Shown: positions 6,501-41,925 of the stretch, piece by piece
Position numbering within the stretch: position 1 is the first letter of the stretch
Layout of the letters: every line of letters begins with the position of its first letter
Assembly (NCBI GenBank): GCA_026707815.1
Contig: JAPOWB010000006.1
Coordinates: 3,830-67,829, forward strand
DNA from: Candidatus Saccharimonadota bacterium
Lineage (GTDB): Bacteria; Patescibacteriota; Saccharimonadia; Saccharimonadales; VXPC01
Length of the DNA: 64,000 bases
Reading direction: 5' to 3'
The notes under the pieces: model-generated
Databases searched by the model: none
Told to the model about the DNA's origin: nothing
The model's input: only the letters and a program-made list of their open reading frames with translations
Translations under genes and position numbers: made by a program

Positions 6501-6657
6501 CAAAACCTTCTAGAATCAGAAAGTTATCCGCAAATTAACCTGTTCTTTTTCAAAAAAATAAAAAAATACCCCAAATAATACTCATGGTTATCAGCGATAA
6601 ATTTATTGTTCATCCTCTAGTTGTTAGAAAATATTGAAATTGATTATCTGAAATAAG

Positions 6658-6733
6658 TGGTGGGGCTGGCAGGGTTCGAACCTGCGGCCAATCGGTTATG
6701 AGCCGACTGCTCTGACCACTGAGCTACAGCCCC
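6658..6733 (-). tRNA. tRNA with CAU anticodon; likely tRNA-Ile2 (lysidine-modified) or a second tRNA-Met
   Basis: The reverse complement GGGGCTGTAGCTCAGTGGTCAGAGCAGTCGGCTCATAACCGATTGGCCGCAGGTTCGAACCCTGCCAGCCCCACCA folds as a cloverleaf. Its overall pattern resembles remembered E. coli/B. subtilis tRNA-Ile2(CAU). tilS is nearby. Confidence 0.75.
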
Positions 6734-6810
6734 AAACTCTTTATCGCTTTACAATAAACAGTGTAAGCTAATTATAAACTTCAAGGCAAATCCATTATAA
6801 TCAGTAACAA

Positions 6811-7224: not shown

Positions 7225-7295
7225 TCTTCAAAAACATCTCTCCATTAATCTGTCTCTAGAAAATTGTAGTAATTTGTTGTAATATGCCAGCACAA

Positions 7296-7370
7296 TGCGG
7301 GGTGGAGCAGCGGCAGCTCGCGTGACTCATAATCACGAGGTCGTAGGTTCGAGTCCTACCCCCGCAACCA
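7296..7370 (+). tRNA. Initiator-type tRNA-fMet (CAU)
   Basis: TGCGGGGTGGAGCAGCGGCAGCTCGCGTGACTCATAATCACGAGGTCGTAGGTTCGAGTCCTACCCCCGCAACCA. The acceptor and D arm are near-identical to the E. coli initiator (GCGGGGTGGAGCAG..GCTCG, CCCCCGCAACCA), including the initiator-type A11:U24 pair. Confidence 0.8.
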
Positions 7371-24126: not shown

Positions 24127-24141
24127 ATATCAACAAGACCC

Positions 24142-27100
24142 TCATGCCACGAGTTGCTCTGATTTTAGTTTAGGTAGTCTCAACCAATTCAAGCCCCAAG
24201 CTATCCGTTGATTCAGCATTTCAATTGGATTTAAGCAAGACTGAGCATCTTCACTAGCGACAGTTAAAATTTTATCAGTTTGATCTATGACTTCTGAAAC
24301 TTGAGAGATGGGTTCTGTTGATGGCTGGACGGGTTCAGAAAAGGTGCCTAACTCTAATTCAGTATCAGCCTCTATCAATGTCTCCCGCTGTTGCTCAACC
24401 AATAAAGAATCACAAGCATTAGAAAACATTGGCGAAGTATCGGTGTTTGCTAATTGAATATAGTTAATAGCTAGACAATCTTGATAATACAAATTATATC
24501 TTAATATTTTAATGCGTTCAGCAGCGTCGTCATTTTTAAAGCAGAAATCATAGCGATCGCTTTCTTCTAATTCAGCCCCCTGCACGTAAAGATACCAATC
24601 AGCCATATCTAAATTAATGCATTGAGCGTACCGATTAGTATCTAGTCCTCCCGACTCTACCTCAATGCCAGCCACCCCCTCAATTCCCTCGACATAGACG
24701 GCATTATCAAAGATATCGGTGCTTATGTTATCCCTTAGAATTCCACTGCCGTCCATCATTTCAGGCCAAAAACCTATCACCCTTTGTTGACCTGGATAAA
24801 GCAGACTTGCTAGAGCTTCAGCCTCCTGAGGAGTTGAGTGATTGTCTGCATAGGCTTGATCAAAAAGATTTATCCCCGGCTGAAAATTTTTAGTTAAACC
24901 AGCGATATATGTTTTGGCTTTTTCTTCAAAACTGTCTTGATAATGGTGAGAAGCTAACAGAGATGAGGCGGTTGAATAAGGATTATTCAAGGCAAAGATA
25001 TTGCTCCAAATACCCTGTTCAGCATAATAATTCCTTTGAAGAGCTAGAGATATTTGGGTCTGTCGCAAGGCTTCATCAACTCCAATTGCCACTCCGCCGT
25101 GTCCACTAGCTTCAGCCTGAGCCAAGTGATGCTTGCCATAATCTACCAAGGCGTAATTTCGGGCACCATTAGCTGAATTATTGATATCATTCAAAAGAGA
25201 AGTGTTGATGCCAGTAGCTTCCTCAACGACGCTACCCATGACTTTATTAAAAATAAAATGATCGAAAACAAAACCCGACCCCACAGTTCCGCCTGCAATG
25301 AGAATATTTTTAACAACCTGCCCTATAAGTAATTGGCCACCAGTCTTAGCAAGTACCCCAATTCCCAGACTGAAAAGCATGGCTCCCAGCTCTACTATGG
25401 CAATAACTATCTGAGCGACTGGATTTAAAAGCATATTGCAAAGCTGTTCAAATACATCTCCTAAATAGTTAAACACAGGCTTTAAAGCCCATTCTGCTAC
25501 TGCTCCAAAAACTTTTAAAAAAGGAAAAAGAACAACACTAAAAAAACTCTTAAAAACTCCTCGCCATGAACTAGTATCAAAATGCGGAATAGCAGCACCC
25601 GCTAAACTGCTTCTATAAGTGTAATTATCCAGACCGCTATTTTTGAGTTCATTGGTTAAGTCTGTATCACTGATTTGTTTGACATTGCTTTTGAAGCTAT
25701 CTTGATCGCTGTTTTGAAAGAGATTTGCATCATCAATGCTGATCTCTCCCTCATATTGATTGGGATTATCAAAAATCCCTTGGAGTTTTTGAAAGCCATG
25801 AGCAGGGTTGAAGTATTGACCATATTGGAGAATCTTTTTTAGGCTTAAGCCACCAGGTCCAGCTTCGACTGAGTATTCATTTGAATAATCTACGCCTTCA
25901 ACATCTTTGTAGACTGAAGCTGAACGACCCAAAATCCCAACCTGATAATTAGCTGAGGTTGCAAAACCATTGAATCGAGAAGATAAATCTGCCACGACAT
26001 GGCTTTCAGCTTCTCCAGCTTTAATCTGGCTTGTGACGGTATCCATGGTAACGGCTGTATCAATCATTCCATTTATTTTAGTTTTAAAAGTTTTTTGAAT
26101 AACCTGACTTAATTCATACAGAACACAAACCACCGTGCTGATGCCAATAGCCAAAGATACCTGACTAGCCCCCCGAAGAACATGAGTATTAAAGTTATTC
26201 AACTGAGCTTGCCTGCCCTCAGAAATCCCAGATCTGATTTGCTCACCAGTCGCTCCAGTTTTATAGTCTTGGCGAGCCGCTTCCAATTCGGCATCAGTAA
26301 TTCCCATCTTCTTCAAAGCACTATCTGCTCCAACCAATCGCCTTAATCTAGATTTTCCCTCTGAAATATTATGATTAATTTCTTGATTAACTGCAGTTTT
26401 CAAAGCTCCAGGCGAACCCCTAATTCTATTTTTCAAAGTGCCATTTTTTAAATCATGGATCAAAAGCCTAAATCTAACAAAAGGCATTCCAGTTATTTTG
26501 GCTATATAAACTGCCGAGCGATGAGCCCTATACGAGTCAAATCGTCCACCATTATAAAGATTGCGATTGATGTCATCTCTAAAATTGTTGAGGTCTTTAA
26601 TATCGTTTAAGGGAATGGGTCTCCCATCCGGAGAGCGAACTCCCGATAAAGTTTTCCGACCCCAAGTCCACCACGGAGAATGTCTAAAACGATTAAACTC
26701 CCCCATATCATAGTCTGCACCTGTTAGATGATTAAAAATCTGATTGGGGGTTGTACCAAACAGTCTATCTGTTAGGACAATTCTTTTGTTTGGCGGGATA
26801 TCCTTGCCAGACAGACTCTTCCCATTGAAGTGAGCTCGATTATAGGCATGATACAAATGATTAAATCTTCGACTTAAAGAAAAATGAAAATGCCCAAATC
26901 TTAGTCCAGTGGAGATACGATTAACATGTTCTAAAATTCCTCCAACATGAGAAAACAGCAACAGCAATAAAACCCCAATCAGGGTCGGCATCAGAAAACT
27001 TCCAATACCCAGCAAAATCTTCCTCCGATTTCTGTTCGAAGATTGATTAGGTTGTTGCTGTCTTTGTCTGAGGCGTCGTATTAATGATGTTTCTTTTTGA

Positions 27101-27342
27101 TCTTCAGACTCTTCATTAATAAAAGCTGGAGCATCATCGCTTGGAGGCTGATCTGGAAATTCTAAGTCTTGGAGATCTTGGCTTTCTTGATCTGATTCAT
27201 TTTCAGTGGCTGAATATGTAAGAGGCTGATCTTGGAATCTAGATCGCTGGAGATTGAGTTGCTGAAGTTCATCTGAATAAAGAATCTCTTCTTCAATTTC
27301 CTCTTCTATTTCTGGTTCATCTTCTGAGCGAAAAACAGCCAT
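24142..27342 (-). CDS. Large (1066 aa) polytopic membrane protein of unknown family, T4SS-like operon
   Basis: Acidic N-terminus, a basic stretch (RRLRQRQQQPNQSSNRNRRK), and a first TM segment. A further TM lies near residue 400, a TM cluster near residues 600-700, and a long C-terminal soluble region follows. No motif I can assign. Confidence 0.5.
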   Translation of the reverse strand: MAVFRSEDEPEIEEEIEEEILYSDELQQLNLQRSRFQDQPLTYSATENESDQESQDLQDLEFPDQPPSDDAPAFINEESEDQKETSLIRRLRQRQQQPNQSSNRNRRKILLGIGSFLMPTLIGVLLLLLFSHVGGILEHVNRISTGLRFGHFHFSLSRRFNHLYHAYNRAHFNGKSLSGKDIPPNKRIVLTDRLFGTTPNQIFNHLTGADYDMGEFNRFRHSPWWTWGRKTLSGVRSPDGRPIPLNDIKDLNNFRDDINRNLYNGGRFDSYRAHRSAVYIAKITGMPFVRFRLLIHDLKNGTLKNRIRGSPGALKTAVNQEINHNISEGKSRLRRLVGADSALKKMGITDAELEAARQDYKTGATGEQIRSGISEGRQAQLNNFNTHVLRGASQVSLAIGISTVVCVLYELSQVIQKTFKTKINGMIDTAVTMDTVTSQIKAGEAESHVVADLSSRFNGFATSANYQVGILGRSASVYKDVEGVDYSNEYSVEAGPGGLSLKKILQYGQYFNPAHGFQKLQGIFDNPNQYEGEISIDDANLFQNSDQDSFKSNVKQISDTDLTNELKNSGLDNYTYRSSLAGAAIPHFDTSSWRGVFKSFFSVVLFPFLKVFGAVAEWALKPVFNYLGDVFEQLCNMLLNPVAQIVIAIVELGAMLFSLGIGVLAKTGGQLLIGQVVKNILIAGGTVGSGFVFDHFIFNKVMGSVVEEATGINTSLLNDINNSANGARNYALVDYGKHHLAQAEASGHGGVAIGVDEALRQTQISLALQRNYYAEQGIWSNIFALNNPYSTASSLLASHHYQDSFEEKAKTYIAGLTKNFQPGINLFDQAYADNHSTPQEAEALASLLYPGQQRVIGFWPEMMDGSGILRDNISTDIFDNAVYVEGIEGVAGIEVESGGLDTNRYAQCINLDMADWYLYVQGAELEESDRYDFCFKNDDAAERIKILRYNLYYQDCLAINYIQLANTDTSPMFSNACDSLLVEQQRETLIEADTELELGTFSEPVQPSTEPISQVSEVIDQTDKILTVASEDAQSCLNPIEMLNQRIAWGLNWLRLPKLKSEQLVA

Positions 27343-27401
27343 TTTTAAGATATTATAACACTGCCGTTAGAGAAGATTGTTCTCTAATAAGGGGATTGGA
27401 A

Positions 27402-29261
27402 TCAAGATTTTTGCGAGGATTGTTGAGGGGATTTTTGTTCTTGTAAAGCTAAAAGTTCATCAGGGGAAGTGGTGATTAAGTCTTGTTCCGATGGTGAAGC
27501 TAAAACCTGCATCTCGACATGTCTGCGTCCGGCAAAAAACAATCCTTGACCAACGGGGAATTGATTAAGAAGCTTCTTTTCATTTTGAGTTAATTTAAAA
27601 ACCTCGCTCAGCAGATCAATAGCTGTTGAAGATTGCTTTAAAAGTAATTGCATGCTGGAATTAGCGATGATTGACCGACCCAATCTAGAAGATGTGAAAT
27701 CTTCTACATCTTGAGTAATATTTGTAATCCCTAAATTATATTTTCTAGCCCTCTTAGTTAAGCCGAACATAAAATTTGCTGAATCCTCATATTTCATAAT
27801 TTGCCAAGCTTCGTCAACAATTAAAATACGTTTTCGCTTATCACTTCGAGTTTTGTTCCAGATATAATTTAAAACCATGTACATTCCGATAGGTCTAATT
27901 TCATCCTCTAAATCTCGAATATTAAAAACCACCAATTGATTATCTATTTTGACATTACTTTGCTGACTAAATAGTCCAGCAAAAGTGCCAGACATATATT
28001 TACGCAACCTTTGAGCCAGTTTTGGTCCACTACCGCCCATATGAGACAAAGTGTCATGGAGATCTGCCAATATTGGTGGCGGACTGCTATGAGTTAAGGG
28101 ATCTCTGGTAATACCAGCTTTGGCATAGGTGTCAATCAGAGCAACATCTAAATCAGCTTCTTCTGTTGGATTTAAAATAACCTGTATGCCAGCTGAGGTC
28201 TGCATACCTCCAAGCATTAGCCTCAACAAGCCATGCAGATCAATCAAATTATTCCTTAAAACATCTTCATCATCGTCATCATGCTCGACTTTTGGCAAAT
28301 CAAAAGGATTAATCCGACTTGGACTGGATAAACTGAGATTAATATATGTCCCGCCGACAGCCTCAGCCATTCTCTGGTATTCGTTTTCTGGATCAATAAT
28401 AATAACCTCAACCCCCAGCATCATTAATCTCAAAGCCTCCAGTTTGACAGCAAAACTTTTACCAGCTCCAGACTCGGATAGAACCACAGAATTACTATTT
28501 TCTAGACTAAATCTGTCAAAAATAACTAAACCTGAATTATGCAAATTAATGCCATATAAAATACCTCGATCCTGAGTTAAATTAGCGCTAGTGAAGGGAA
28601 AGGTGGTTCCTAAAGCCCCAGTATTCATATTGCGTCGAATCATTAATTGGTCTAAACCCAGAGGAGCAACAGAATTGAAAGCTTCTTCCTGTTGAGCCGA
28701 AGCCGGTTTGGAATAAATTAATTGACGATTCAGCAAGGCTTCAATTCTTTTGTGGTCTATTTCTAAGCCCTCCAAATCCTGAGCGTAGACTGTGTAGTAA
28801 AAACCAAATCTAAAGAATCTCTCTTCCCCCATTTGGAGTCGATCCCTCATATCTTCAGTGTCTAAAAGTTGAGCTTCTTTACCTGGGTCTCGGACTCGAC
28901 CCTTTTCTCTATCTAGGGTGATACTAGCTTCAAGCTGAGTAGTTTTACGCCTTAAATTTTTTAAAATTGTGGCTGTCTGAACTGGGTAAATATGCAGAGT
29001 AATATCCATAATTTGAGGCAGTGAAATCACCTGTCCCAACCAACCGCTATAAACCTCCCGGGGATAGCCGAAAACATAGGCGCTTCTAACATAACTAACC
29101 CCCATTCTGAAATAGGTGCTAAAAAATTCTAAACTTGGCGGGGCAATAAAATCCAGTAAACTAGTTATTCCCTGTTGATAAGCGGCTTGGACAGCCTGTT
29201 GTTCTTGAAGTCGCTTTTCTTCTATTAAGGCTTGGGGATCTTTAGGCTTAGATTTAAACAT
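27402..29261 (-). CDS. virB4: VirB4/TrbE/CagE-type T4SS ATPase (C-terminal two-thirds of a canonical VirB4)
   Basis: Walker A SESGAGKSF and Walker B RILIVDEAW. The upstream VirB4-typical region reads YVRSAYVFGYPREVYSGWLGQVISL...LHIYPV, and a TQDVEDF-like motif lies downstream. Confidence 0.85.
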   Translation of the reverse strand: MFKSKPKDPQALIEEKRLQEQQAVQAAYQQGITSLLDFIAPPSLEFFSTYFRMGVSYVRSAYVFGYPREVYSGWLGQVISLPQIMDITLHIYPVQTATILKNLRRKTTQLEASITLDREKGRVRDPGKEAQLLDTEDMRDRLQMGEERFFRFGFYYTVYAQDLEGLEIDHKRIEALLNRQLIYSKPASAQQEEAFNSVAPLGLDQLMIRRNMNTGALGTTFPFTSANLTQDRGILYGINLHNSGLVIFDRFSLENSNSVVLSESGAGKSFAVKLEALRLMMLGVEVIIIDPENEYQRMAEAVGGTYINLSLSSPSRINPFDLPKVEHDDDDEDVLRNNLIDLHGLLRLMLGGMQTSAGIQVILNPTEEADLDVALIDTYAKAGITRDPLTHSSPPPILADLHDTLSHMGGSGPKLAQRLRKYMSGTFAGLFSQQSNVKIDNQLVVFNIRDLEDEIRPIGMYMVLNYIWNKTRSDKRKRILIVDEAWQIMKYEDSANFMFGLTKRARKYNLGITNITQDVEDFTSSRLGRSIIANSSMQLLLKQSSTAIDLLSEVFKLTQNEKKLLNQFPVGQGLFFAGRRHVEMQVLASPSEQDLITTSPDELLALQEQKSPQQSSQKS

Positions 29262-30159
29262 TATTAGGCTCTTTTTGACTTTGACTTAAATCTTCAGAAG
29301 ATTGAGTAACTTTAGCTAAATCTTCAGCCTGATTCCAGGTTTTTTGGAAGTCAGTTATATTTGCTGGAGCAGCTTTTTGAGTCTGTTGTTGAACAACAGG
29401 TTCTAACATATCTTCAACTTCAGGCAGGGGTTCAACTAGGTTTTGTAAGGGGTTATAAAAATCATGGTACAAAACAATTAACTCTTTAGTTTTAAGGGGT
29501 CGATTTCGAATTCCACACAAACCTAAACCACTGCTAATAGAGTTAATCCGGTAATTCAACTCAGTCTTAGCTTTTTTTAAATTTCGTTCATCGACGATTA
29601 GGGGGGCTGATTTATTGCTGAATATGGCAGTGAATTTATTGAGAAAGTTTTTGCCAGTTGTAGTGAAAGTTTCAGGACTAAATTCAGAATTGAAAAATGG
29701 TAAAACTATGTAGAATTTTTTCTCCATTACATGAGTGTTATCGACCAAATTAGCAATGAAATCCAAATAATCCGAAGTTATAACTTGAAGCAACATATTA
29801 TTTTGTTTTTGCAGAGAATTCTCCAAAGTTTTAATGTAATTTTCAACATCAACTGGTCTTGATTGAATATTTATTTGAATTGGAAAGGATAAAGAATTTA
29901 AGAAGTTCTGATAGGCATATTCAACAGATTCTTGTTCTGATTGACTCATCAAATCGAAGTTAATAGCCTCAGCCTCAATCACTGCTCGGAAAGAACCATC
30001 TTTTAAAATGACAATTCCGTCTTTAATCTCGGCAATCTGCAGGGTATTTTGAGTTGAATGAGAGCTAATTTTAGCTTTTTGTTCTAAAATCTTTTTATCT
30101 TGAGGATTTTGAACAATTGCCTGAGATACTTGTGGTTGTTGATTAGATTGTGAATCCAC
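29254..30159 (-). CDS. Protein resembling the N-terminal (non-ATPase) domain of Gram-positive-type VirB4; possibly a split VirB4 subunit
   Basis: IAEIKDGIVILKDGSFRAVIEAEAINFDLMSQSEQESVEYAYQNFLNSLSFPIQINIQSRPVDVENYIKTLE resembles, from memory, the start of PrgJ/TrsE-like VirB4 proteins. Its stop overlaps the VirB4 start by 8 nt (AATAATGTTTAA). Confidence 0.45.
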   Translation of the reverse strand: MDSQSNQQPQVSQAIVQNPQDKKILEQKAKISSHSTQNTLQIAEIKDGIVILKDGSFRAVIEAEAINFDLMSQSEQESVEYAYQNFLNSLSFPIQINIQSRPVDVENYIKTLENSLQKQNNMLLQVITSDYLDFIANLVDNTHVMEKKFYIVLPFFNSEFSPETFTTTGKNFLNKFTAIFSNKSAPLIVDERNLKKAKTELNYRINSISSGLGLCGIRNRPLKTKELIVLYHDFYNPLQNLVEPLPEVEDMLEPVVQQQTQKAAPANITDFQKTWNQAEDLAKVTQSSEDLSQSQKEPNNV

Positions 30160-30173
30160 CCCTCTGAAGTCCT

Positions 30174-30911
30174 TTATTTCTGTATTTTATTAATGATACT
30201 TTCTAAAACAGCGATTTTCAAATCTTTGGCTTCAGCTAATTTGGGAATCATGCCAAAAACTGGAGATGATTTTTGGCTGCTTTGGGCTTGTGGATCAAGG
30301 GTTGGTTGATCTGTCTGACTCAACTGTTGCTGTTTGACATTTGTCTTAATGCGAGATTTGTGGTTTTGATGATGATGATTTAAGAGACTATAAAAATGTT
30401 GATTAAGAGATAACTGTTGACGTTCATGTTCTTGGTCTACTGTGATGGTTTCAGAAGTTGCTAGGTTGCTTTGATGATTTAAAATGGATTGACCTCGACT
30501 ATCTAAAACTTCCGTAATATTCTGAATTTCTTGATTAGCTTGTTGAGCATCCAATTCTTTGCGGGGATCAGTAACAATCTTTTCAGAAGGGGTCTTTTTT
30601 TGAATGATAATTTCAGGCTGTCCCCCCTGAATCCACAGCCGAGTTTTAGATTTGAATAAGAAATTTAATTTAGCCAATAACCAAACTTCATTTGGTTGAT
30701 CTTGCCCCAAGGGTAAAGCCAGAAAAATAAGAGGTGCAGCAAATAAACTGAATAAGAACAAAAAGAAAAGATGCCCAAAGGTTGAGACTGATAAATAACC
30801 AACGAAGAGCAACCCACAGCCAATAAAGGCAAAGATAAATTGTTTCAGGCTTAACCGCCAAATTATCTTGTCTTCAGCTTCAATGTCTTGGAGGATTTTA
30901 TATGAGGCCAT
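30174..30911 (-). CDS. PrgI-family / VirB3-like small membrane protein
   Basis: The N-terminus YKILQDIEAEDKIIWRLSLKQFIFAFIGCGLLFVGYL is followed by a second TM segment. This matches the PrgI-family pattern (xIPxxIxxEDKIxxxLTxRQ + 2 TM). It sits upstream of VirB4, as VirB3 usually does. Confidence 0.55.
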   Translation of the reverse strand: MASYKILQDIEAEDKIIWRLSLKQFIFAFIGCGLLFVGYLSVSTFGHLFFLFLFSLFAAPLIFLALPLGQDQPNEVWLLAKLNFLFKSKTRLWIQGGQPEIIIQKKTPSEKIVTDPRKELDAQQANQEIQNITEVLDSRGQSILNHQSNLATSETITVDQEHERQQLSLNQHFYSLLNHHHQNHKSRIKTNVKQQQLSQTDQPTLDPQAQSSQKSSPVFGMIPKLAEAKDLKIAVLESIINKIQK

Positions 30912-30922: not shown

Positions 30923-31906
30923 TTATTGATTAGATTGTGGATTCTTGGAGTCAATCCCCCGACTTTCAAATAATTCCGTAACTTCTGGTTTGAGGTTGAC
31001 TCTAGCGACTGGCAAATCGACTATACTTTGGGCTCTATCTCTCATGCGGGTAGAGGGGTCATTGTCTAGGGCATTTTCCCAAGCACCTCTTGACCATTTT
31101 TGAGAATGGATTTCTGGTAACTGGAATAGAATATCAGTACCTAATCGCACTGATCCATCTTGTTGCCTGCTGGCGGTAGCTAAATCTGGGTCACTTTCAA
31201 GGAGAGATTCCCGCCATTTTTCAGAAGTCATAGCATCCGCCAATGTTTGTCTAGCAGCCGTGTTTTCGGGATGTGCAGTAGATTGAACCATGTTGCGAAT
31301 TATTGAAGTCTCTCCTCGCCTCATTAGTTCATTAACAGCCGCCAAGGATTGAGCTCTGGTTGCTTTAGTGCTGGTTGCAATATTTTCAAGCTGGCTGGCA
31401 TCCACATTGTAAGTACTTGCAGCAAGCTGTTGAGCTTCTTCTTGAAGGTGAATCTGATCGACCATATTTCTTGCTTGGGATCTTCCGTCGGCTCTATTAT
31501 GGCGCTTCTCTCTGCGACTTCCGGGAGAAGCTTCTTGTCTTCTTTGTCTTCTTCTAGTTCGCCAATCATGTATATTTTTCTGATCTCTAAATCGTCCTCC
31601 CTGCTCTAATCTTTTCAACTCCCCCCCTGCCTTATGGACGAGTTTTTGTAAAGGACCAGCTGTTCCTGCCATTAGTTGATGTTGACGCCTGATTCCACGA
31701 GCTATACCTTTATTCTTCATCCGATTTTTGCCAAATTCTCTCAACCTATTTCTTGGTCTATCTATTAAGCCCTTACTTCTATCATTAATAGTCCCCGTCA
31801 GTTGACCCAATAAACCACCAAATCGCTTAGCCATAAAGGGAATAGCCAAGAAAGCTCCAATATAGACAATTAAAGCCAACAATCGTTTAATGGGATCAAT
31901 TTCCAT
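30923..31906 (-). CDS. Single-TM, highly basic (Arg-rich) protein of unknown function, T4SS-like operon
   Basis: N-terminal TM (LLALIVYIGAFLAIPFMA), then R/K/Q-rich stretches (RTRRRQRRQEASPGSRREKRHNR). No family recognised. Confidence 0.4.
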   Translation of the reverse strand: MEIDPIKRLLALIVYIGAFLAIPFMAKRFGGLLGQLTGTINDRSKGLIDRPRNRLREFGKNRMKNKGIARGIRRQHQLMAGTAGPLQKLVHKAGGELKRLEQGGRFRDQKNIHDWRTRRRQRRQEASPGSRREKRHNRADGRSQARNMVDQIHLQEEAQQLAASTYNVDASQLENIATSTKATRAQSLAAVNELMRRGETSIIRNMVQSTAHPENTAARQTLADAMTSEKWRESLLESDPDLATASRQQDGSVRLGTDILFQLPEIHSQKWSRGAWENALDNDPSTRMRDRAQSIVDLPVARVNLKPEVTELFESRGIDSKNPQSNQ

Positions 31907-31946: not shown

Positions 31947-34328
31947 CTACCAATCAGTCTGAATAATTAACCAAGAAAAGAATTTACCAAAGGCAATAAT
32001 AGTGACAATTACTGGATATAAAAGTAATAAGTAGAAGAAGGTTTTAAAATAAAACCGCCAAGCCCGGTCATTGCCTGGCAAAATCCAAAGAGCTAAACCA
32101 ATAGGCCCAAAAACTAAAAGAGCAATTATAAGAATTTTTCTAAAGACCAAAAATAAATAAGCAATAAATAAGCCAATAGCCAAAGTAAACATCACGGGCA
32201 ACAAAAGAACCCACCCCCAGACTGCTCCACCTACTGCTATGATGGATAAGCCATCAGTCTCAATTCCACCACCACCCAGTATTTTATCCAGACCCCACCC
32301 CCTTAATTCAGTTGGGGCAATACCATAGATGATGCTTGCCATCAAATCGCCTAATTGAGTAAAACCTTGAATCATTAAATCTCCTAAAATCCATGAAAAT
32401 TGGATAAAGATAGTTCCAGCCACTAATTTTGGCAGATATTTTTTAACGGTATAATTTTTAAAAACACCAATATCAAAGGCAGTTGAAATAATCATAAACA
32501 GAGCCGTGCCAATAATGGCATAGGTGACAAAATCTCGCATAGTTGACCACAGCTCGTACAGATAATGTGGATCGTTGTCACCAGCTAGTTGATTATGATC
32601 GTCGTCAACAGCTGGTTGATTATATTTGCTGCTATCAATTCTTAAACTGTCTGTAGCCTGAGTTTCAGCCCAGTTTAAAATCCCAGTTGCCGCTTCCAGT
32701 AATGGACATATCACCCAGCTCAACCATCCAGCCAAAACTTCGCAATTTTGGGGGGCTGGATTTGAAGATGAAGAATTGCCTTGGACTACATTCTGACCAG
32801 AAACAGCAGTATCCCCTGTTGGGGATTCCAATACTATTACCACTAAAGTGCTTTTCTTGTTACCATTAGCTGGACCCTCGTCACACTTATCTTTCCAGTC
32901 TTGCCATATACCAAAACCAAAACCTTTATCAACAGCACTGCTGAAGGAGTTTTTTTCAATGAGAATACGACTGCCACATTTACGAACATTTTCCTCTGTA
33001 AGTTCTGTTAGATATTCCGTAAAAACATAAAAATCATCTGTGTCCATCTCACTATGCCTGTGATTGTGATTGGGGGATTTATAGGATTCTGTTTTCCTGC
33101 GATCCGACTCTGCATTGCATTCCCATTTATTTTCTGTACCATCTCTTCGCTCTAAATTATCGCCCCAAATCCCAGACATCGCCGTACCATCACATTTCCC
33201 CTCATCTTTAATTTGTTCTATAACGTCAGATTCCATGACATAATCCACTCTATCCAATCCTTGCTCGATGGGATCTATATCAATAATCGCTAAGCCATCG
33301 TTTTTATACGAGTACCTCTTGCAGGGGTCAGTATTGTGCGCATCATTATCTTGAACTATTCCACGTATTGGGTAAGTGGAATCATTTTCAAAATTTGTAA
33401 ACTCATCCTTATGAATAAGGATGCGATTACCACATTTATTAGTTCTCTGCTCTATGAAGACATAATAATTGTTGCTAGCGTCTTGTAGCTCATCAGATTT
33501 CGATGAATCATAGCCTTCAAAATGATCATACTCATCTGATATTCCCGGTAAGTATAATGCTTGATTGGCTTTGAAAAAATCATCATAACAAAACCATTGT
33601 CTGCTACCTGATTTCAACTCATCTCCGCCCTTACCCCATAAGATGACATTTCTGCAACTATTGCCCTCGGGTAGTTCATTCAAAGAATATTTATTCAATA
33701 AATGACTTGGCGGAGGCTGATTACCTTCTTCTGCGCCTATCCTGATAGTCTTTACTCGCAGTCCAATCTCGTTCTGTGTCACCACCCATTGGTATTCAGA
33801 GGGTGGATCAGTCCCACCATCACTAGTCTGAGTGTGGTTAGGTCCATCTTTGCAACTTGCTGACCAGTATATTAACTCTGCTTCGCGAGCGGAATTATTA
33901 TTGTTGTTAAAGACGTCTTGATTAACAGCTATGACATGCCCACAACCAAACTCGCCAAAAGCGTGAAAACCCAATTTGCCGGGAGTTCTTTCCAAAAAGA
34001 TATAGCTTTCTTGGGCAATGGCTTGAAAATCCCCATCTTCGTCATCTAAGGATATATATTTTTTAATATCATCATAGCAATCCCAGAGAGTATCGCCCTC
34101 AGTATTCGCAGTTGAAGATGTTGTTGAAGTCGGTGCTGAAGGCGGTCCAAAAAGCACAACTCCCATACATGAATCCCCATCGGGCGCTCTATTAAACCCA
34201 TATACTGGTATATCGTAAGCTGATACTGGGGTCGAGAAACAAAGACAGACTAAAATAAATATTAGAAGCCAACTTCCTAAAATTAACTGATTATTGACCC
34301 CCTGAATGCTTTTCAGAATATGATGCAT
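31947..34328 (-). CDS. VirB6/TrbL-like polytopic membrane protein with a large triplicated Cys-rich N-terminal ectodomain
   Basis: Signal or TM start, about 520 aa of extracytoplasmic sequence with three related modules, then about 6 TM helices in the last roughly 260 aa, as in VirB6/TrbL-type channel subunits. Confidence 0.6.
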   Translation of the reverse strand: MHHILKSIQGVNNQLILGSWLLIFILVCLCFSTPVSAYDIPVYGFNRAPDGDSCMGVVLFGPPSAPTSTTSSTANTEGDTLWDCYDDIKKYISLDDEDGDFQAIAQESYIFLERTPGKLGFHAFGEFGCGHVIAVNQDVFNNNNNSAREAELIYWSASCKDGPNHTQTSDGGTDPPSEYQWVVTQNEIGLRVKTIRIGAEEGNQPPPSHLLNKYSLNELPEGNSCRNVILWGKGGDELKSGSRQWFCYDDFFKANQALYLPGISDEYDHFEGYDSSKSDELQDASNNYYVFIEQRTNKCGNRILIHKDEFTNFENDSTYPIRGIVQDNDAHNTDPCKRYSYKNDGLAIIDIDPIEQGLDRVDYVMESDVIEQIKDEGKCDGTAMSGIWGDNLERRDGTENKWECNAESDRRKTESYKSPNHNHRHSEMDTDDFYVFTEYLTELTEENVRKCGSRILIEKNSFSSAVDKGFGFGIWQDWKDKCDEGPANGNKKSTLVVIVLESPTGDTAVSGQNVVQGNSSSSNPAPQNCEVLAGWLSWVICPLLEAATGILNWAETQATDSLRIDSSKYNQPAVDDDHNQLAGDNDPHYLYELWSTMRDFVTYAIIGTALFMIISTAFDIGVFKNYTVKKYLPKLVAGTIFIQFSWILGDLMIQGFTQLGDLMASIIYGIAPTELRGWGLDKILGGGGIETDGLSIIAVGGAVWGWVLLLPVMFTLAIGLFIAYLFLVFRKILIIALLVFGPIGLALWILPGNDRAWRFYFKTFFYLLLLYPVIVTIIAFGKFFSWLIIQTDW

Positions 34329-34566: not shown

Positions 34567-35754
34567 ATGATTACGAAATTAAGTTTTCATTCTCGGATTG
34601 TATTTTGGGGATCGCTAATCATCCTTGTAATTATTAGTCAGCTATCTTTTGGTATAGTCATGGCTGATTCTTTCAATTCTTTAATTTCAGGCACAGAAGA
34701 TGATTCCCCAACAATTACTATAACCAGTGCATCTACTGGGTTGGTAGACACGATAAAAAAGTGGGAATATAAAGTTCTACATGGCAATCAACCACGAGCA
34801 GTTTGTAAAGAACCCGAAACAAGGCATGTTATCGGTGGAGGCCGCATCGCAACTCTTTGGCAACTCGGCTGGCGAGAGGGTAGACAATACGCAAAGACTT
34901 TAGGGGATGCTGGAAAAGTACTTTGTTTTAGGGGCGAATTTTCTGACAGTCGACTTGGCAGACGAAGCTATCATTATAAAGGAGTGTATCTCGATCCTCT
35001 AAAAACTAGTGAATTAAGTTCTGAGTCTCAAGAAGGGGATTCTGCGATTTCGGTAGACCAAGATACGATCACAATCGAAACCAAATTTCAAGGGGGAGGG
35101 CTTGGTAGGTCTCCGACTCCAATTATCAATTCTGATACTTGGGTGCGACGGATAATCCCCCGAACCACCACTTGTGATGGCTTTGTTTTTTTAAAATACA
35201 CGCGACCAAGCCCCCTTCATCCCATCCCAGCTACTTGGCGACATGCCTGGACTGATTACTCCGGTTCAAGCTATACAATTCCCAAATCGGAATATAATAA
35301 AAACATCAGAATATGTTTTGCTGGTCAATATCTTAATAAAGAGGACAAATGGCATTTTAAACATCACGATGAATTTTATCGTGATCCTGCTTCGAATTTC
35401 CGGTCTTATGAATTTGATCGTGCTAATTCGAATTCCCAGCCTTCTAGTAGTGGGGGTTCCAGCAATCGCAATGTTGATCCGACAGTTGATAGCACTTGCG
35501 AAGACATTAATAATAATTGCCAAGCCTTAGAAACGCTAAATAGTATTCTTAACTATATGGCTATCATTATTTTTCCGATTACCATCATCATGATTATTGT
35601 TGGAGGTATCCAATATTCAATTGCTCGGGATAATCCCGAGGCTGTGGCTTCAGCTAGATCTCGAATTTACAAGGCAGTTTTAGCTTTAATTCTTCTAATT
35701 AGTTTGTGGACATTTTTGCAGTGGTTAATTCCGGGTGGAATTTTGGGAGGTTAA
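34567..35754 (+). CDS. T4SS pilin-like protein with a roughly 330-aa N-terminal ectodomain (internal 2x Cys-containing repeat)
   Basis: N-terminal TM or signal segment. The C-terminal module IIFPITIIMIIVGGIQYSIARDNPEAVASARSRIYKAVLALILLISLWTFLQWL is homologous to the module in the four downstream genes. Confidence 0.55.
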   Translation: MITKLSFHSRIVFWGSLIILVIISQLSFGIVMADSFNSLISGTEDDSPTITITSASTGLVDTIKKWEYKVLHGNQPRAVCKEPETRHVIGGGRIATLWQLGWREGRQYAKTLGDAGKVLCFRGEFSDSRLGRRSYHYKGVYLDPLKTSELSSESQEGDSAISVDQDTITIETKFQGGGLGRSPTPIINSDTWVRRIIPRTTTCDGFVFLKYTRPSPLHPIPATWRHAWTDYSGSSYTIPKSEYNKNIRICFAGQYLNKEDKWHFKHHDEFYRDPASNFRSYEFDRANSNSQPSSSGGSSNRNVDPTVDSTCEDINNNCQALETLNSILNYMAIIIFPITIIMIIVGGIQYSIARDNPEAVASARSRIYKAVLALILLISLWTFLQWLIPGGILGG

Positions 35755-35759
35755 TAAGA

Positions 35760-36230
35760 ATGAAGCGACATTTTTTTCAAATTTTTTGCTTAATTATCAG
35801 CTTACTGAGTTTGTCAGCAGTTTTTAGTCCCTCCGTCGAAGCTAATAGGCACATACCCGATAATTGCCAAGGTCGATCGTTATTGGGTATTCCTTCATGG
35901 GATCGAGGCATATGTTTGGATGAACAGGAGGAATTGTCAGAGTTTTTAGCAGCTAATCGGACTGAAATTTTAGCCACCAATATTATAGTTATTTTAGTCT
36001 CTATCGCTGGCTTAGTGGCGGTGGCTTTTATAATAGTTGGCGGCTTTCTATATGTCTTGGCTTCAGGCAATTCTGAAAAAGCTAAAAATGCTCGGCAAAC
36101 AATCATCCATGCTTTGGTTGGTTTGGTGATTGCCATTATGGCTAGAGTGGTAGCTGAAGTTGTTTGGAGAAACTTAACTGCTGATAATCCACCCAGCCTA
36201 GAAACAGCTTATTTATTAATGAGGTTATAA
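35760..36230 (+). CDS. T4SS pilin-like protein (TrbC/VirB2-type membrane hairpin)
   Basis: I moved the start to the ATG at 35760, with GGGAGG 10 nt upstream. The signal peptide is MKRHFFQIFCLIISLLSLSAVFSPSVEA and there is a Cys pair. The module reads VAFIIVGGFLYVLASGNSEKAKNARQTIIHALVGLVIAIMA. Confidence 0.6.
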   Translation: MKRHFFQIFCLIISLLSLSAVFSPSVEANRHIPDNCQGRSLLGIPSWDRGICLDEQEELSEFLAANRTEILATNIIVILVSIAGLVAVAFIIVGGFLYVLASGNSEKAKNARQTIIHALVGLVIAIMARVVAEVVWRNLTADNPPSLETAYLLMRL

Positions 36231-36784
36231 TGTTTGCTCCATTATTTTCGGTTTTAAGGGCGAATATTGAAATTAATAATTCAGATATTCCCGCCATTCC
36301 CAAGCCTGCTGATCAAACCATTTTGGAAGGTACTCTAAATTTAGTTTTTATAGTTTTGGGAAGCATCAGTTTATTAATTCTGGTGATTCAGGGCATGAAA
36401 TATGCCCTATCTTTAGGTAACTCCGAGCAAGTCAATAGAGCCCGCAATGGCATTATCTATTCCTTGGTTGGGTTAACTGTTGCTACGACAGCTTGGTCTT
36501 TAGTGACCTTTACCTTAGACAGTGTTACTGGACCAGAGACTGTAAATGGTCAGACGTCATCAATAGTTAATTTGCTGGCTAATATTTCTGGTTATTTAAT
36601 TTTTATCACTGCCATTATTTCAATCATTGTCGTTATTATTGGCGGTTTTCAGCTGGTTTTCTCGGAAGGTAATTCCGAGCAAGCTAAAAAAGCTCGGAGT
36701 ACCATCATCTATGCTGTAATTGGTTTACTAATAGCAATCATTGCTGGACCAGTTTTAAAATTTTTCTTTGGTTTTTTTGAATAA
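36230..36784 (+). CDS. T4SS pilin-like protein with two tandem pilin modules
   Basis: Two copies are present: LILVIQGMKYALSLGNSEQVNRARNGIIYSLVGLTVATTA and VIIGGFQLVFSEGNSEQAKKARSTIIYAVIGLLIAIIA. The start overlaps the previous stop (TAATG). Confidence 0.6.
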   Translation: MFAPLFSVLRANIEINNSDIPAIPKPADQTILEGTLNLVFIVLGSISLLILVIQGMKYALSLGNSEQVNRARNGIIYSLVGLTVATTAWSLVTFTLDSVTGPETVNGQTSSIVNLLANISGYLIFITAIISIIVVIIGGFQLVFSEGNSEQAKKARSTIIYAVIGLLIAIIAGPVLKFFFGFFE

Positions 36785-36929
36785 CTTTTGATTTTTTAAC
36801 TGCTACTAGATTAATTATGAGCTACCCTTTAAAAGTCAAAGTTTTAAAATTAAATTTGAGATGGACTTGTAATTGTTAATTGCTATTTTTTATGGTAAAA
36901 TATATTTGACTAATTTAAACAAACAAAAG

Positions 36930-37334
36930 ATGTCAAAGCTTACAATTTTGTCCTTTATTTCTGCTGTGATTTGCTTATTGGTGATTTCTTTAGCTAATCC
37001 TGTTTTGGCAGCTGTCGATTGTGATAACTTACCCCCTCTTAGCGAACTCGCCCCAGCTGAACAAGCCGAGGCGGCTCTCTGCCCTGTAATTGGTAATGAT
37101 ACTGAGACCACAACAGTGCCTGAAATTATTCAAATTATTATTGGGATATTATCTTGGGTGATAGGAATCGCATCTGTGATTGTCATCTTAGTCCAAGGTT
37201 TAAGGCTAATTTTATCCGGAGGTAATTCTCAAACTGCCACCGAAGCTAGAAATGGCATCATTTACGCTCTGGTTGGTCTGGCAGTGGCTATTTCAGCGGC
37301 TATTCTTGTTAGGTATATAGTTGATCAACTTTAA
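36930..37334 (+). CDS. T4SS pilin-like protein
   Basis: I moved the start to the ATG at 36930 (MSKLTILSFISAVICLLVISLANPVLA signal peptide). It has a Cys pair and the module ILVQGLRLILSGGNSQTATEARNGIIYALVGLAVAISA. Confidence 0.6.
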   Translation: MSKLTILSFISAVICLLVISLANPVLAAVDCDNLPPLSELAPAEQAEAALCPVIGNDTETTTVPEIIQIIIGILSWVIGIASVIVILVQGLRLILSGGNSQTATEARNGIIYALVGLAVAISAAILVRYIVDQL

Positions 37335-37409
37335 GGCTTATCTGTCTTTAAGAGGGTTCTCTGGCTTGGGATTTTACTCACTCACCTTAAAGTGTTATAA
37401 TTTGCAATT

Positions 37410-37928
37410 ATGAGTCCAATAAAAATCTTGTCTTTGAATTTAATTTATTTATATAAATCAACCAGTAGATTATTGATAATAGGTTCGGTGAGTTTGTTAT
37501 TTCTTGTTGGCATTCAAATAGCTATTTTTAATCAATCTGCTCATGCATCATGCAGCATAATTACTCATACGACTGAATCTGCTTGTGAAGCTGCCGATGG
37601 TACATGGACAGAACCAGCTTCCACGACCAATTCTATTCAGGGAGGGGTTCAGGAAGGGATAGTGACTGCTGGGGGCGACAACAATGTCAATGCCGAAGAA
37701 TCTTTGAAGGAGACAGTTAATGATATTATTAGTATTCTCGGCTGGATTGTTGGGATTGTTTCAGTTTTAATGTTGATTTATGCAGGTCTGCGTTACATTG
37801 TTTCTGGTGGTTCGGAAAAAGGAGTGACCGCTGCCAAAAAGACCATTATCTATGCTGTTATTGGTTTAGTGGTTGTCTTGCTTTCTCAAACTCTGGTTAG
37901 ATATATTTTTGATCAATTTCTCGACTAA
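37410..37928 (+). CDS. T4SS pilin-like protein
   Basis: Signal-like N-terminus ending AHA, the Cys pair CSIITHTTESAC, and the module LMLIYAGLRYIVSGGSEKGVTAAKKTIIYAVIGLVVVLLS. Confidence 0.55.
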   Translation: MSPIKILSLNLIYLYKSTSRLLIIGSVSLLFLVGIQIAIFNQSAHASCSIITHTTESACEAADGTWTEPASTTNSIQGGVQEGIVTAGGDNNVNAEESLKETVNDIISILGWIVGIVSVLMLIYAGLRYIVSGGSEKGVTAAKKTIIYAVIGLVVVLLSQTLVRYIFDQFLD

Positions 37929-39373: not shown

Positions 39374-39450
39374 GTACCCGTAGCTCAGCTGGATAGAGCG
39401 TTGGTTTGCGGTACCAGAGGTCACAGGTTCAAATCCTGTCGGGTACGCCA
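39374..39450 (+). tRNA. tRNA-Arg (GCG anticodon)
   Basis: Acceptor GTACCCG/CGGGTAC, D arm GTAGCTCAGCTGGATAGAG (identical to the remembered E. coli tRNA-Arg D arm, with A20). Anticodon stem TTGGT/ACCAG with loop TTGCGGT (U33, G34-C35-G36, G37). T arm ACAGG-TTCAAAT-CCTGT and encoded CCA. Confidence 0.85.
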
Positions 39451-40318
39451 GAACGAATGCTATGGAACTTACTCTTACTTTTTAACTGTTTCACCTCTGT
39501 TAATTCTGAATTTAAACTGGTTCCACCTACATTTTTTAAAACATCTTCCGCTTTGATCAAAAACAGTGAATTTACCCCCGTTAAACTAGTGGTTCCACCA
39601 ACTAATTCTCTATAAGTTGGTAATCTATGGAAAAGTAATCCAAAAAGCTTAGCCTTCATGAAATTATCTAGCTTATTGTTGGCAAAATCTCCCAAATGAC
39701 TCATCAAATGTTGAATCTTTATCTTCAATTTACTTAGGTCTGGCATCCTTTCAGAAGACAAAGCTTGCTTCTCATTTTTAAGTTTTGCAATCGCTACTTC
39801 TAGACTAGATATGTCTTGTTCCAGAGATTTAATAGTTGATTCGTTGCTTAAAAGTTTAATTTTAGCAATATAAGACTGCAATTCTAGCTCTAAATTAGTG
39901 ATTTGCTTTTCAAAACTAACCACTTTATTTTGATGCCCAGCTTGAACCGCATTAAAAGATTCCTCTAAAACTTCAAAGATCTGCTCCATTTTTTGGGGAG
40001 ATAGTCGCAATTTAGATACAAAACTATCTACAGTAGCTTCTAAATCTTTTTTACTCACTCTAAAACTGTGATTTTTACCCCTGCTACAATGATAAGCAGG
40101 ATAATATTTACCACTTCTGCCCCTAGAAGCACTGCCTAATAATGGCTTATGACAATCTGGACATAAAAAAATTTCTTATAAGGATATTCGTGGCTACGCT
40201 TACCTTTATCTGTGTGGCGAACATCTTTAAAATCTTTAACTTCAATCGCTCCATCTTCTTTTTCAAGAATAACTCTACTGCCTCTATTGACCTTATTAAA
40301 CAAATGTATCAACTGCAA
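39429..40318 (-). pseudogene. Large serine recombinase-like gene, N-terminally truncated and frameshifted
   Basis: Two ORFs (40318-40136 and 40058-39429) join through a frame change at an A7/T7 run (40165-40171). The restored reading ...YPYKKFLCPDCHKPLLGSASRGRSGKYYPAYHCSRGKNHSFRVSKKDLE... is a zinc-ribbon motif followed by a coiled coil, as in the C-terminal half of large serine recombinases. No catalytic N-terminal domain is present. Confidence 0.6.
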
Positions 40319-40791
40319 TGAATAAATTCCACTTCTTTCATTATGTCGAGAGGATATCTTTTGCAGTCAATGTTTAATTTTAAACAAACATCAGGAATTT
40401 TCATTTGAGGTTGGTCCTTTCTGCGTCTACTTTCATAACTTAAAATAGATAGGGAATATTCTTGAGCATAAGCAATCATATGAGTATCAGCTATAGATCT
40501 GCTGTTACCAACATTATCTTTAGTAATCATTTTGAATCTTTTATTGATTTCTTGAGCTTGATCAATAATATTCTCATTAACTGCTTTAATCAGTTTTTGC
40601 TTTCTTAAATCAGTAATCCACTCCTTTAATCGTGATGGATATTTGCATTCATTCGCTATAGAATCAATTAATACAATTTGACCTTTTTCAATCTTATCTC
40701 TTAAATCTTGCCAAAAATTCTTGTGATAATCATGGGGACAAAAATTAGCAAAATAAATCAAAATATTAGCATCTATTAGATAAGATCTCAT
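40309..40791 (-). CDS. DUF4411 (PIN-like nuclease fold) protein; putative toxin/effector
   Basis: MRSYLIDANILIYFANFCPHDYHKNFWQDL...IADTHMIAYAQEYSLSILSYE...KIPDVCLKLNIDC matches the remembered DUF4411 pattern (YLLDANVFI...FW..L / ADP.lIA.A / kIPdvC). Confidence 0.7.
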   Translation of the reverse strand: MRSYLIDANILIYFANFCPHDYHKNFWQDLRDKIEKGQIVLIDSIANECKYPSRLKEWITDLRKQKLIKAVNENIIDQAQEINKRFKMITKDNVGNSRSIADTHMIAYAQEYSLSILSYESRRRKDQPQMKIPDVCLKLNIDCKRYPLDIMKEVEFIHCS

Positions 40792-40794
40792 GGC

Positions 40795-41925
40795 TTAAAA
40801 ACTCCCCAGTGGTAAACGTAATAATTTCTGAGTCTCTGAAGCACTTAATCTATTATCTAAATGTAGTGAAAAAATATATTCATTAAACAAAGATCCATTG
40901 CCAGATTTAATAGATGCATGGGGCGAAAACCCCCGTCTATCACTGCCTCGAAATGATTTTTTATTTTCCAAATTCTGCTGTATCTCAGATTTAAAGAAAT
41001 TCTCCAATCCATTTAAATCACTATAATTAATTTTCTTGAGATCTTTTAGTCTATAAAAGCAAGCAAGACTGCTAACTTGAAATTTTTTAGCTAAATCCTT
41101 GATGCCTTCAACATTTTCATACACCAATTGAGGTATTTCTGATTTGGGCATTAAGAAGTGAGCAGCTACTTGATTACAAAAAATCTCCTCTTTATCTTTA
41201 ATTTGATCAAATTGCCTAAAATCGATACTGTCCAAACTATCTTCTGCTCTAAACAGGTGGACTAGTTCGTGGGCTAGAGTAAATAATTGACCTGTTGAAG
41301 AATCTTCTCTATTCAATGCTATCAAAGGAGCATATTGATCATTAATATATATACCCCTCATTTCTGCTAAATCTATCTTCTCATTTCTTAAAACCGTGTT
41401 TTTGAAAACAAAAATATATTGTTTTTCTAGCAGTTCTCTTAAGTGAGCTGGAGCTTTTTTATTATTTAAATCTTTAATACGATAACCAATTTTACTTGTT
41501 ATAAATTTAGCTAGAGATTCTGCATCCTTATAATTGCAACCAGAACCTACTAAGTTATTACTAGATGTTTTATCAAATAGCATATTGTAACGAATAATAC
41601 TCTGTCTAGTCTTTAATAAACTAATAAATCGCTTTAGGTAATAGCTTTCTTCAATCTTTGTACTACGATATGCTGGAATAGTCTTAGAAATTTCTAGATT
41701 TTCTTTCATTAGAAGGTGAAAAGGTGAAATATTATAAATATCAGCTAATTTTTCTAACTGTTTATAACTCGGAGATTTATCTGTAATATTACCCGCTTCC
41801 CATAAAGCAACTTTGTCTTTCTTGGTTTTTGGATTAATTTTATGAGTAGCTTCTTGAGTAGATAAATCCATATTTTCCCTAGCAATTTTTAAGTTACTAA
41901 AATTAATATCTTGACGCCAACTCAT
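40795..41925 (-). CDS. XRE-type HTH fused to an ImmA/IrrE (M78, COG2856) zinc metallopeptidase; putative antitoxin/sensor-regulator
   Basis: N-terminal HTH (LSTQEATHKIN...ALWEAGN...SYKQLEKLADIYNISPFHLL) and an HExxH motif in FTLAHELVHLF. It lies 3 nt upstream of the DUF4411 gene. Confidence 0.75.
   Translation of the reverse strand: MSWRQDINFSNLKIARENMDLSTQEATHKINPKTKKDKVALWEAGNITDKSPSYKQLEKLADIYNISPFHLLMKENLEISKTIPAYRSTKIEESYYLKRFISLLKTRQSIIRYNMLFDKTSSNNLVGSGCNYKDAESLAKFITSKIGYRIKDLNNKKAPAHLRELLEKQYIFVFKNTVLRNEKIDLAEMRGIYINDQYAPLIALNREDSSTGQLFTLAHELVHLFRAEDSLDSIDFRQFDQIKDKEEIFCNQVAAHFLMPKSEIPQLVYENVEGIKDLAKKFQVSSLACFYRLKDLKKINYSDLNGLENFFKSEIQQNLENKKSFRGSDRRGFSPHASIKSGNGSLFNEYIFSLHLDNRLSASETQKLLRLPLGSF

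Follow-up and report, generated by a model that had tools for sequence, protein, structure and literature searches.

Patescibacteria cannot grow as epibionts without their type IV secretion system (T4SS), as seen in Southlakia epibionticum (PMC10633639; PMC12857230), yet nobody knows what this T4SS touches or transports. A locus in the genome of a Candidatus Saccharimonadota bacterium (GenBank assembly GCA_026707815.1) raises the question in a concrete form. There, a putative VirB6-like channel subunit carries a large N-terminal ectodomain rich in cysteines, and we ask what role such an ectodomain could have on such a subunit. The gene lies in a stretch of 64,000 nucleotides of contig JAPOWB010000006.1 (positions 3,830 to 67,829 of the forward strand), which was analysed as a whole and is hereafter called the window.

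In this study, we examine the architecture, the relatives and the natural variation of this protein. A preliminary description of the window, made from its letters alone, had seen a VirB6-like channel protein fused to a triplicated four-cysteine ectodomain. Comparison with near-identical genomes now shows the ectodomain to behave as an allelic cassette that is exchanged, and this is its most informative feature. The module from which the ectodomain is built, its predicted location outside the cell and the identity of the membrane domain are then examined, and the possible roles of the ectodomain are weighed against each other.

Results

Two ectodomain alleles in near-identical genomes

The sole divergent orthologue of the window protein (P0002, 67% identical) is encoded on a contig that is syntenic with the window (L001), and outside the ectodomain the two share 98.6% nucleotide identity over 20.9 kb. 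In the alignable part of the ectodomain, identity is only about 63%. The edges of this divergence are sharp. There are no nucleotide differences between the alleles in codons 1-37, and three in the 238-nt spacer upstream; dense differences then span codons 38-515 and are followed by near-complete identity, apart from a repeat-containing loop at about residues 574-583. That small variable loop (residues ~569-587) sits between the juxtamembrane helix and the first transmembrane (TM) helix and is encoded by a 27-nt tandem repeat (32570-32623 in this minus-strand gene), where an indel separates the alleles. Synonymous (dS) and non-synonymous (dN) divergence between the alleles are both 0 in the signal peptide, 1.30 and 0.325 in residues 38-505 of the ectodomain (dN/dS 0.25), and 0.028 and 0.010 in the membrane domain. 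In the neighbouring T4SS genes of the two contigs, dS is 0.01-0.08 and dN at most 0.009, except in pilin 1 (0.053).

A third strain (L003) carries the window-type allele and is 98.5% identical to the window throughout; because this same-allele strain is equally diverged (~1.5%), backbone divergence does not track the allele. In the assemblies of two samples (L001, L002), the P0002 allele is the same over 16.3 kb (100% identity); it is recorded on five contigs, and the window-type allele occurs in the window and L003. Since both alleles recur in independent assemblies, a metagenome assembly artefact was rejected as the source of the allele difference.

Each module of the ectodomain has its orthologue in the other allele, with 50-58% identity. 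In module 3, identity is 69% in predicted helices and strands versus 40% in loops (Fisher p=5e-4). Neither a second copy of the ectodomain nor a silent cassette or a template resembling that of a diversity-generating retroelement (DGR) was seen within the window, nor was a reverse transcriptase found there. A DGR or silent-cassette mechanism was rejected on the grounds that the window holds no extra ectodomain DNA and that the divergence includes indels and saturated synonymous sites. The simplest account of these sequences is that two old ectodomain alleles, with a fold apparently under purifying selection, have been exchanged by homologous recombination in a near-clonal population. Saccharibacteria are naturally competent (PMC12857230).

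Pilin 1 (34567-35754, plus strand, 395 residues) has a long N-terminal ectodomain with 6 cysteines and a C-terminal T4SS_pilin domain. Between L001 and the window its dN is 0.053, its dS 0.06 and its dN/dS 0.88, and the changes are located in its ectodomain; pilins 2-4 show no non-synonymous change, against four in pilin 5 (98.8% identical). This pattern suggests that pilin 1 may be a second exposed part of the T4SS that evolves fast.

Three related four-cysteine modules

From N- to C-terminus, the 793-residue protein consists of a predicted signal peptide, three cysteine modules of about 130-150 residues, a linker and a polytopic membrane domain (Table 1), and the module motifs quoted in the preliminary description are found in its translation. 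It has 16 cysteines in total: 28 and 30 in the N-terminal hydrophobic segment, 12 in the modules, and the pair 529/541. Modules 1 and 2 are similar at z=13 in a Smith-Waterman comparison with 500 shuffles (blastp E 7e-10), as are modules 2 and 3 at z=7.2 (E 4e-6); modules 1 and 3 compared on their own showed no significant similarity in this shuffle test. In a non-circular test, a hidden Markov model (HMM) was built from the single modules of 12 other proteins, excluding the window protein, and it identified domains in the latter at residues 51-166 (18.1 bits), 221-313 (55.7) and 372-497 (45.9). The proposed relationship of the three modules is therefore significant both by shuffling and by an independent profile. 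Identity between modules of the protein is just 18-25% and no DNA-level repeat between them was seen within the window, so the triplication is old; a recent tandem duplication was rejected for the same lack of a DNA-level repeat.

The cysteine pattern was also expected to recur in orthologues, and it does. All 12 module cysteines are kept in P0002, and across 21 module instances the first, second and fourth cysteines are invariant. The third is lost only in both modules of one homologue (P0003), which have a substitute cysteine about 25 residues upstream. This conservation would fit modules that are each probably locked by two disulfides.

Distribution and predicted fold of the module

A profile of six module copies, taken from the two alleles, was searched exhaustively against 1.84 billion representative proteins and matched 16. 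Fourteen of these (P0002 and P0003-P0015) belong to one VirB6-like family, whose membrane domain is highly conserved; P0002 represents the 50%-identity cluster that contains the window protein. The other two (P0016, P0017) were rejected as members, being unrelated repeat proteins with weak per-domain scores. Most relatives have one module; P0003 has two, and the window protein and P0002 have three. The single module of the homologues aligns with the membrane-proximal module 3, and is preceded by a different N-terminal domain of about 200 residues with two cysteines. On these alignments, one module appears to be the ancestral ectodomain of this small family, and the triplication a lineage-specific expansion. 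The ectodomain is thus not the product of a fresh fusion.

The membrane domain of the window protein is 45-54% identical to that of homologues and carries the motifs NYTVKKYLP and LPGND.AWR. Among GTDB species representatives, a related membrane domain was found in only four loci, all in metagenome-assembled genomes (MAGs) of Saccharibacteria/Patescibacteria, and two of the four have other ectodomains. The ten homologues that were looked up (within P0003-P0015) belong to clusters of 1-2 sequences on 1-2 contigs. A word-index homologue search, family profile included, returned two proteins only, and a scan of JGI metagenomes gave no match. Of the relatives with a name, a Candidatus Saccharibacteria MAG is the closest.

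Pfam searches of 20 isolated modules matched no family. An AlphaFold model of module 3 (from a 20-row alignment) was alpha/beta, with a pLDDT of 80 and a pTM of 0.78, and Foldseek searches of it against the PDB and BFVD returned nothing convincing (best E 0.3, TM-score at most 0.34; best TM-score in the PDB 0.31). Both results agree with the earlier statement that the module could not be placed in a known family, and on the model the four-cysteine module may have a new fold.

Predicted export, topology and a split gene

The N-terminal region had been proposed to lie outside the cell, and its sequence supports this: a signal-peptide-like segment ends at VSA-YD, and the charges follow the positive-inside pattern. 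Similar N-termini ending in AxA-like motifs occur in all homologues. Hydropathy marks hydrophobic segments at residues 599-624, 635-654, 692-754 and 759-792. The full-length AlphaFold model, a poor one (pLDDT 43.7), has long helices at 588-620, 632-669, 695-749 and 754-792 in addition to the juxtamembrane helix 535-561; as modelled, the C-terminal part is consistent with 5-6 TM helices. The loops KNYTVKKYLPK and RAWRFYFK and a basic tail fit an N-out/C-in topology.

That basic tail is encoded separately. An open reading frame (ORF) of 327 residues lies 40 nt downstream of the VirB6-like gene in a different frame, and its tail has 33 lysines and arginines versus 13 aspartates and glutamates within 130 residues. 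Because its counterpart is fused to the VirB6-like protein in relatives (P0003, P0005, P0012, P0014 and L008), the VirB6-like gene is split into two ORFs here. The predicted topology thus places the ectodomain outside, six TM helices in the VirB6-like ORF, a seventh in the 327-residue ORF, and the tail in the cytoplasm.

The cysteine content of the locus follows predicted location. Exported proteins (pilins 1, 2, 4, 5 and VanY) have even numbers of cysteines in their mature parts, and cytoplasmic ones have 0-1. A membrane-anchored DsbA-like thioredoxin encoded elsewhere in the window is a candidate catalyst of extracytoplasmic disulfide formation.

The secretion locus and the VirB6 slot

The gene under study fills the PrgH/VirB6 slot of monoderm systems. 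In pCF10, PrgH is encoded directly upstream of PrgI and VirB4 and matches Pfam TrbL. The T4SS gene order found here is common to six relatives. In a precomputed Pfam table, three fused homologues (P0003, P0012 and P0005, from loci L014, L016 and L017) match PF19590 TrbL_3 at E<=1e-5; P0002 has a faint TrbL_3 match and one split homologue none. Our own hmmscan of P0003, P0012 and P0005 did not reproduce these matches, and a tblastn search of the membrane domain against plasmids gave no match. By position, topology and the precomputed matches of its fused homologues, the protein is VirB6-like, and we treat it as a putative member. The preliminary assignment to VirB6/TrbL is accordingly retained for gene position, the approximately six TM helices and TrbL_3 on fused homologues, but not for our own profile searches, which found no match.

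Table 1. Features in and around the secretion locus, in window coordinates (TM, transmembrane)
Feature	Position	Strand	Details	Basis
VirB6-like gene	31947-34328	-	793-aa ORF, ATG start	
Signal-peptide-like N-terminus	34218-34328	-	aa 1-37; K6, hydrophobic 15-31, VSA-YD	Hydropathy
Ectodomain, allelic cassette	32784-34217	-	aa 38-515	Sliding identity, codon-exact edges, dS/dN
Module 1	33729-34208	-	aa 41-200; Cys 54/84/129/159	HMM envelopes, independent profile
Module 2	33267-33695	-	aa 212-354; Cys 225/247/299/336	Shuffle test, HMM envelopes, independent profile
Module 3, membrane-adjacent	32820-33233	-	aa 366-503; Cys 379/404/451/482	HMM envelopes, independent profile, AlphaFold
Juxtamembrane helix	32646-32744	-	aa 529-561; nearly invariant Cys pair C529/C541	Family alignments; AlphaFold helix 535-561
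Polytopic membrane domain	31950-32534	-	aa 599-793; about 6 TM helices	Hydropathy, alignments, AlphaFold
327-aa ORF	30923-31906	-	One TM helix and basic tail; C-terminal continuation of VirB6-like protein	Fused relatives
Rest of T4SS operon	23083-30911	-		Pfam, NCBIfam; gene order as in relatives
PrgI/VirB3	30174-30911	-		Pfam, NCBIfam
TraC-like/TrsD	29254-30159	-		Pfam, NCBIfam
VirB4 ATPase	27402-29261	-		NCBIfam CD1110 family, 360 bits vs cut-off 325
1066-aa protein	24142-27342	-		
VanY-like peptidase	23083-24126	-		Pfam, NCBIfam
Five VirB2-like T4SS_pilin genes	34567-37928	+	Divergent from VirB6-like gene	PF18895
Membrane-anchored DsbA-like thioredoxin	14592-15326	+	Single CxxC at aa 57	Pfam DSBA, Thioredoxin_4; N-terminal hydrophobic segment

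The genes dnaN, dnaA and yidC lie directly beyond the T4SS cluster, and the remaining window holds housekeeping genes (tRNA synthetases, GroEL, Mur ligases, FtsH, MurJ). Among the 50 ORFs that were scanned with Pfam, which are not every ORF of the window, none had a relaxase or coupling-protein domain, and no VirB5 was recognised at the T4SS locus. From its genes, the locus is a chromosomal, origin-proximal, pilin-array T4SS of the Patescibacteria type, and its arrangement matches the published layout (PMC12102498); the locus type is already known. Here and in all relatives examined, VirB4 is divided between two overlapping ORFs, one for a TraC-like/TrsD N-terminal part and one for the ATPase.

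Some further features of the window were recorded. Between the pilin array and the housekeeping genes, positions 39374-41925 hold a tRNA-Arg gene, a Mu Gam-like match too weak to reach the threshold (39429-40058) and a pair of Peptidase_M78 and DUF4411 (40309-41925); this region may be a small accessory or mobile remnant. A secreted protein of 617 residues without a Pfam match (42843-44696, minus strand) has a perfect C-terminal tandem duplication of 219 bp (73 residues; repeat 42849-43316), and offset BLAST matches to L001 suggest that copy number or arrangement of the repeat differs there. Three tRNA-Met (CAT) genes occur on both strands within 1 kb (6424-7370).

Discussion

A proposed role for the ectodomain

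The results lead us to propose the following mechanism. Judging from sequence, the first 37 residues would direct Sec export, and the mature N-terminus (residues 38-515) would lie outside the cytoplasmic membrane and comprise three old paralogous copies of an alpha/beta module that is specific to this family and about 130 residues long. A flexible linker and the helix with the cysteine pair would join this ectodomain to the approximately six TM helices, which, together with the downstream ORF with one TM helix and a basic tail, would form part of the translocon. In solved Gram-negative T4SSs, the stalk has a VirB6 pentamer as its base, embedded in the membrane; this pentamer recruits VirB2 and bears the pilus base, with VirB5 on top (PMC12624023). 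Because VirB6 is the stalk base under the pilus in those systems, the ectodomain would, by analogy, be expected to extend out of the translocon and across the thin wall, either where the VirB2-like pilus has its base or in the surroundings of that base. In this place it would touch an external partner, be it the surface of a bacterial host, the pilus, or both, and it would act as an exchangeable specificity or antigenic cassette, moved between strains probably by homologous recombination. A role in specificity is proposed because only the ectodomain is swapped in about 21 kb, with cysteines and fold-forming strands kept and loops changed. Location, architecture and cassette behaviour come from the data or by direct inference from them, and from these we infer the binding or specificity function. 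Overall, we assign a probability of about 0.5 to the reading in which the ectodomain, stabilised by disulfides, reaches the cell surface around the pilus base and serves there in contact or specificity, with exposed loops that vary from allele to allele.

Several results weigh against a contact or specificity element on a VirB6-like subunit. Known alleles are two only, too few to demonstrate balancing or diversifying selection, and the dN/dS of 0.25 indicates purifying rather than positive selection along them. Neither a binding partner nor a lectin-like or adhesin-like fold was recognised by Pfam on the modules or by Foldseek against the PDB and BFVD. With hmmscan, Pfam and NCBIfam profiles recovered no TrbL or VirB6 from the window protein or its C-terminal part, from any of 14 homologues, or from the window protein joined artificially to the 327-residue ORF; PDB sequence searches with the window protein and two family profiles found no match, nor did Foldseek against the PDB of the full-length model, which was too poor for its search to carry weight. 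With hhalign, the two family profiles were aligned to a five-member PrgH profile, with block-shuffled controls. The alignment is colinear over 128 columns and falls onto exactly the TrbL region of PrgH, but its score of 23-26 is weak and within the range of the shuffled controls (18.8+-4.0, maximum 29); hhalign against PrgH alone was likewise weak. The ORF split and extreme sequence divergence may explain why profile searches miss this VirB6-like gene.

Alternative explanations

These negative searches are what would be expected if the protein were no VirB6 homologue but a lineage-specific polytopic protein in the VirB6 slot: our hmmscan never recovers TrbL or TrbL_3 for any family member, and the hhalign signal does not leave the control range. 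We nevertheless consider this very unlikely, in view of the precomputed TrbL_3 matches of three fused homologues at E<=1e-5, the faint one of P0002, and a position beside PrgI and VirB4 that is kept in all relatives. The same low estimate covers the possibility that the allele difference arose in metagenome assembly, against which stand the recurrence of the P0002 allele, identical over 16.3 kb, in two samples and on five contigs, and that of the other allele in the window and L003. A more serious competitor, though still unlikely, holds that the ectodomain is a passive stalk or spacer which merely lengthens the translocon so that it spans the cell wall and whose length is set by one, two or three modules, and that the divergent allele is a neutral by-product of recombination with a distant lineage. 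The variable copy number among relatives, the purifying dN/dS, the lack of a binding fold recognised by Foldseek in the PDB or BFVD and the place of VirB6 at the stalk base in solved systems (PMC12624023) would all suit a spacer. A neutral import, however, would not be expected to have edges that coincide with the signal-peptide cleavage site on one side and the linker on the other, beside a membrane domain with a dS of 0.03; moreover, the allele changes concentrate in loops, and the adjacent surface-exposed ectodomain of pilin 1 also evolves fast (dN/dS 0.88).

Loop-biased change and a cassette-type swap of the surface-exposed part of an essential machine could also reflect evasion, with the ectodomain serving as a phage receptor or as a target of host or competitor defence and the allele swap serving escape instead of binding specificity. 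Loss of the protein would not be an option for such a cell, as the T4SS is essential in a cultured relative (PMC10633639). Yet the window yielded no sign of phage or defence, and evasion is compatible with a role in contact or specificity and does not exclude it; we regard it as improbable. The least probable of the alternatives is exclusion or kin discrimination between Saccharibacteria cells, of the kind in which the VirB6 homologue TraG is the allele-specific target of the entry-exclusion proteins TraS and Eex in F-like plasmids and SXT/R391 elements. Exclusion usually targets VirB6 homologues, and its groups are allele-specific (PMC11493245); discrete alleles are present here. The TraG/Eex determinants, however, are cytoplasmic (PMC11493245) whereas the variable part is extracytoplasmic here; relaxase, coupling protein and exclusion gene were not seen among the scanned ORFs of the window, and the T4SS is chromosomal and linked to housekeeping genes, and is not a mobile element. 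A contact or specificity element thus remains the reading we prefer. A bolder form of it would make the ectodomain a host-recognition (receptor-binding) determinant at a position like that of VirB5 or an adhesin, cassette-exchanged by natural transformation so as to switch or broaden the range of bacterial hosts. We hold this form to be tentative and, on balance, doubtful.

The ectodomain offers a handle on what the T4SS contacts and on the role of the extensions of extended VirB6 proteins, and the two natural alleles in near-identical backgrounds are effectively a ready-made swap experiment for host contact or specificity. If the host-recognition form were true, a swappable specificity domain of new fold would be built into the channel subunit itself. 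In any case, the analysis adds a candidate new fold and shows the VirB6-like gene in this clade to be divided between two ORFs.

Comparison with known systems

The window protein resembles VirB6, TrbL and PrgH (PF04610, PF19590) in being polytopic with at least 5 TM helices, in being encoded directly upstream of VirB3 (PrgI) and VirB4, and in its predicted N-out/C-in topology. It differs from them in that it has no detectable profile match of its own, carries a predicted exported N-terminal ectodomain of 480 residues, and has its C-terminal TM helix and tail in a separate ORF. The combination of a VirB6 core and a large hydrophilic domain is shared with the extended VirB6 proteins, such as RvhB6 of Rickettsiales, VirB6-3/-4 of Anaplasma and the F-like TraG. 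In those proteins the extensions are central or C-proximal, and what they do is an acknowledged open question (PMC12857230); those of Anaplasma are repetitive, variable between strains and exposed at the surface (PMC7648143). Here, by contrast, the extension is N-terminal and predicted to be Sec-exported, it consists of old, structured cysteine modules of an unclassified family and not of recent tandem repeats, it varies by allele replacement and not by repeat number, and the C-terminus of the protein is split. VirB5, which in Gram-negative T4SSs sits atop VirB6 at the stalk's upper end as a pilus-tip adhesin and contacts the recipient (PMC12624023), is a possible functional analogue. The candidate element has no recognised relation to VirB5 in sequence or fold, and here it is a covalent part of the VirB6-like subunit.

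At the level of the locus, the system agrees with the Patescibacteria T4SSs that resemble the MPF-FATA class (Quinonero-Coronel 2025; Wang 2023) in having VirB4, TrsD, PrgI, a VirB6 slot and an array of VirB2-like pilins, in lying near dnaA, and in showing no relaxase or coupling protein. VirB6 of Patescibacteria is often undetectable through divergence (PMC12102498), and neither an ectodomain of cysteine modules nor an allelic cassette in VirB6 is described in those two studies. What is new here is the probably exported N-terminal extension of cysteine modules, its replacement as a cassette, and the split C-terminus.

Allelic surface cassettes are known to be swapped by recombination, for example in the exchange of pilins or of receptor-binding domains. 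Although the window yielded neither silent donor copies nor a DGR template or reverse transcriptase, the ectodomain shares with such recombining cassettes its sharp-edged and deeply diverged alleles within near-identical genomes.

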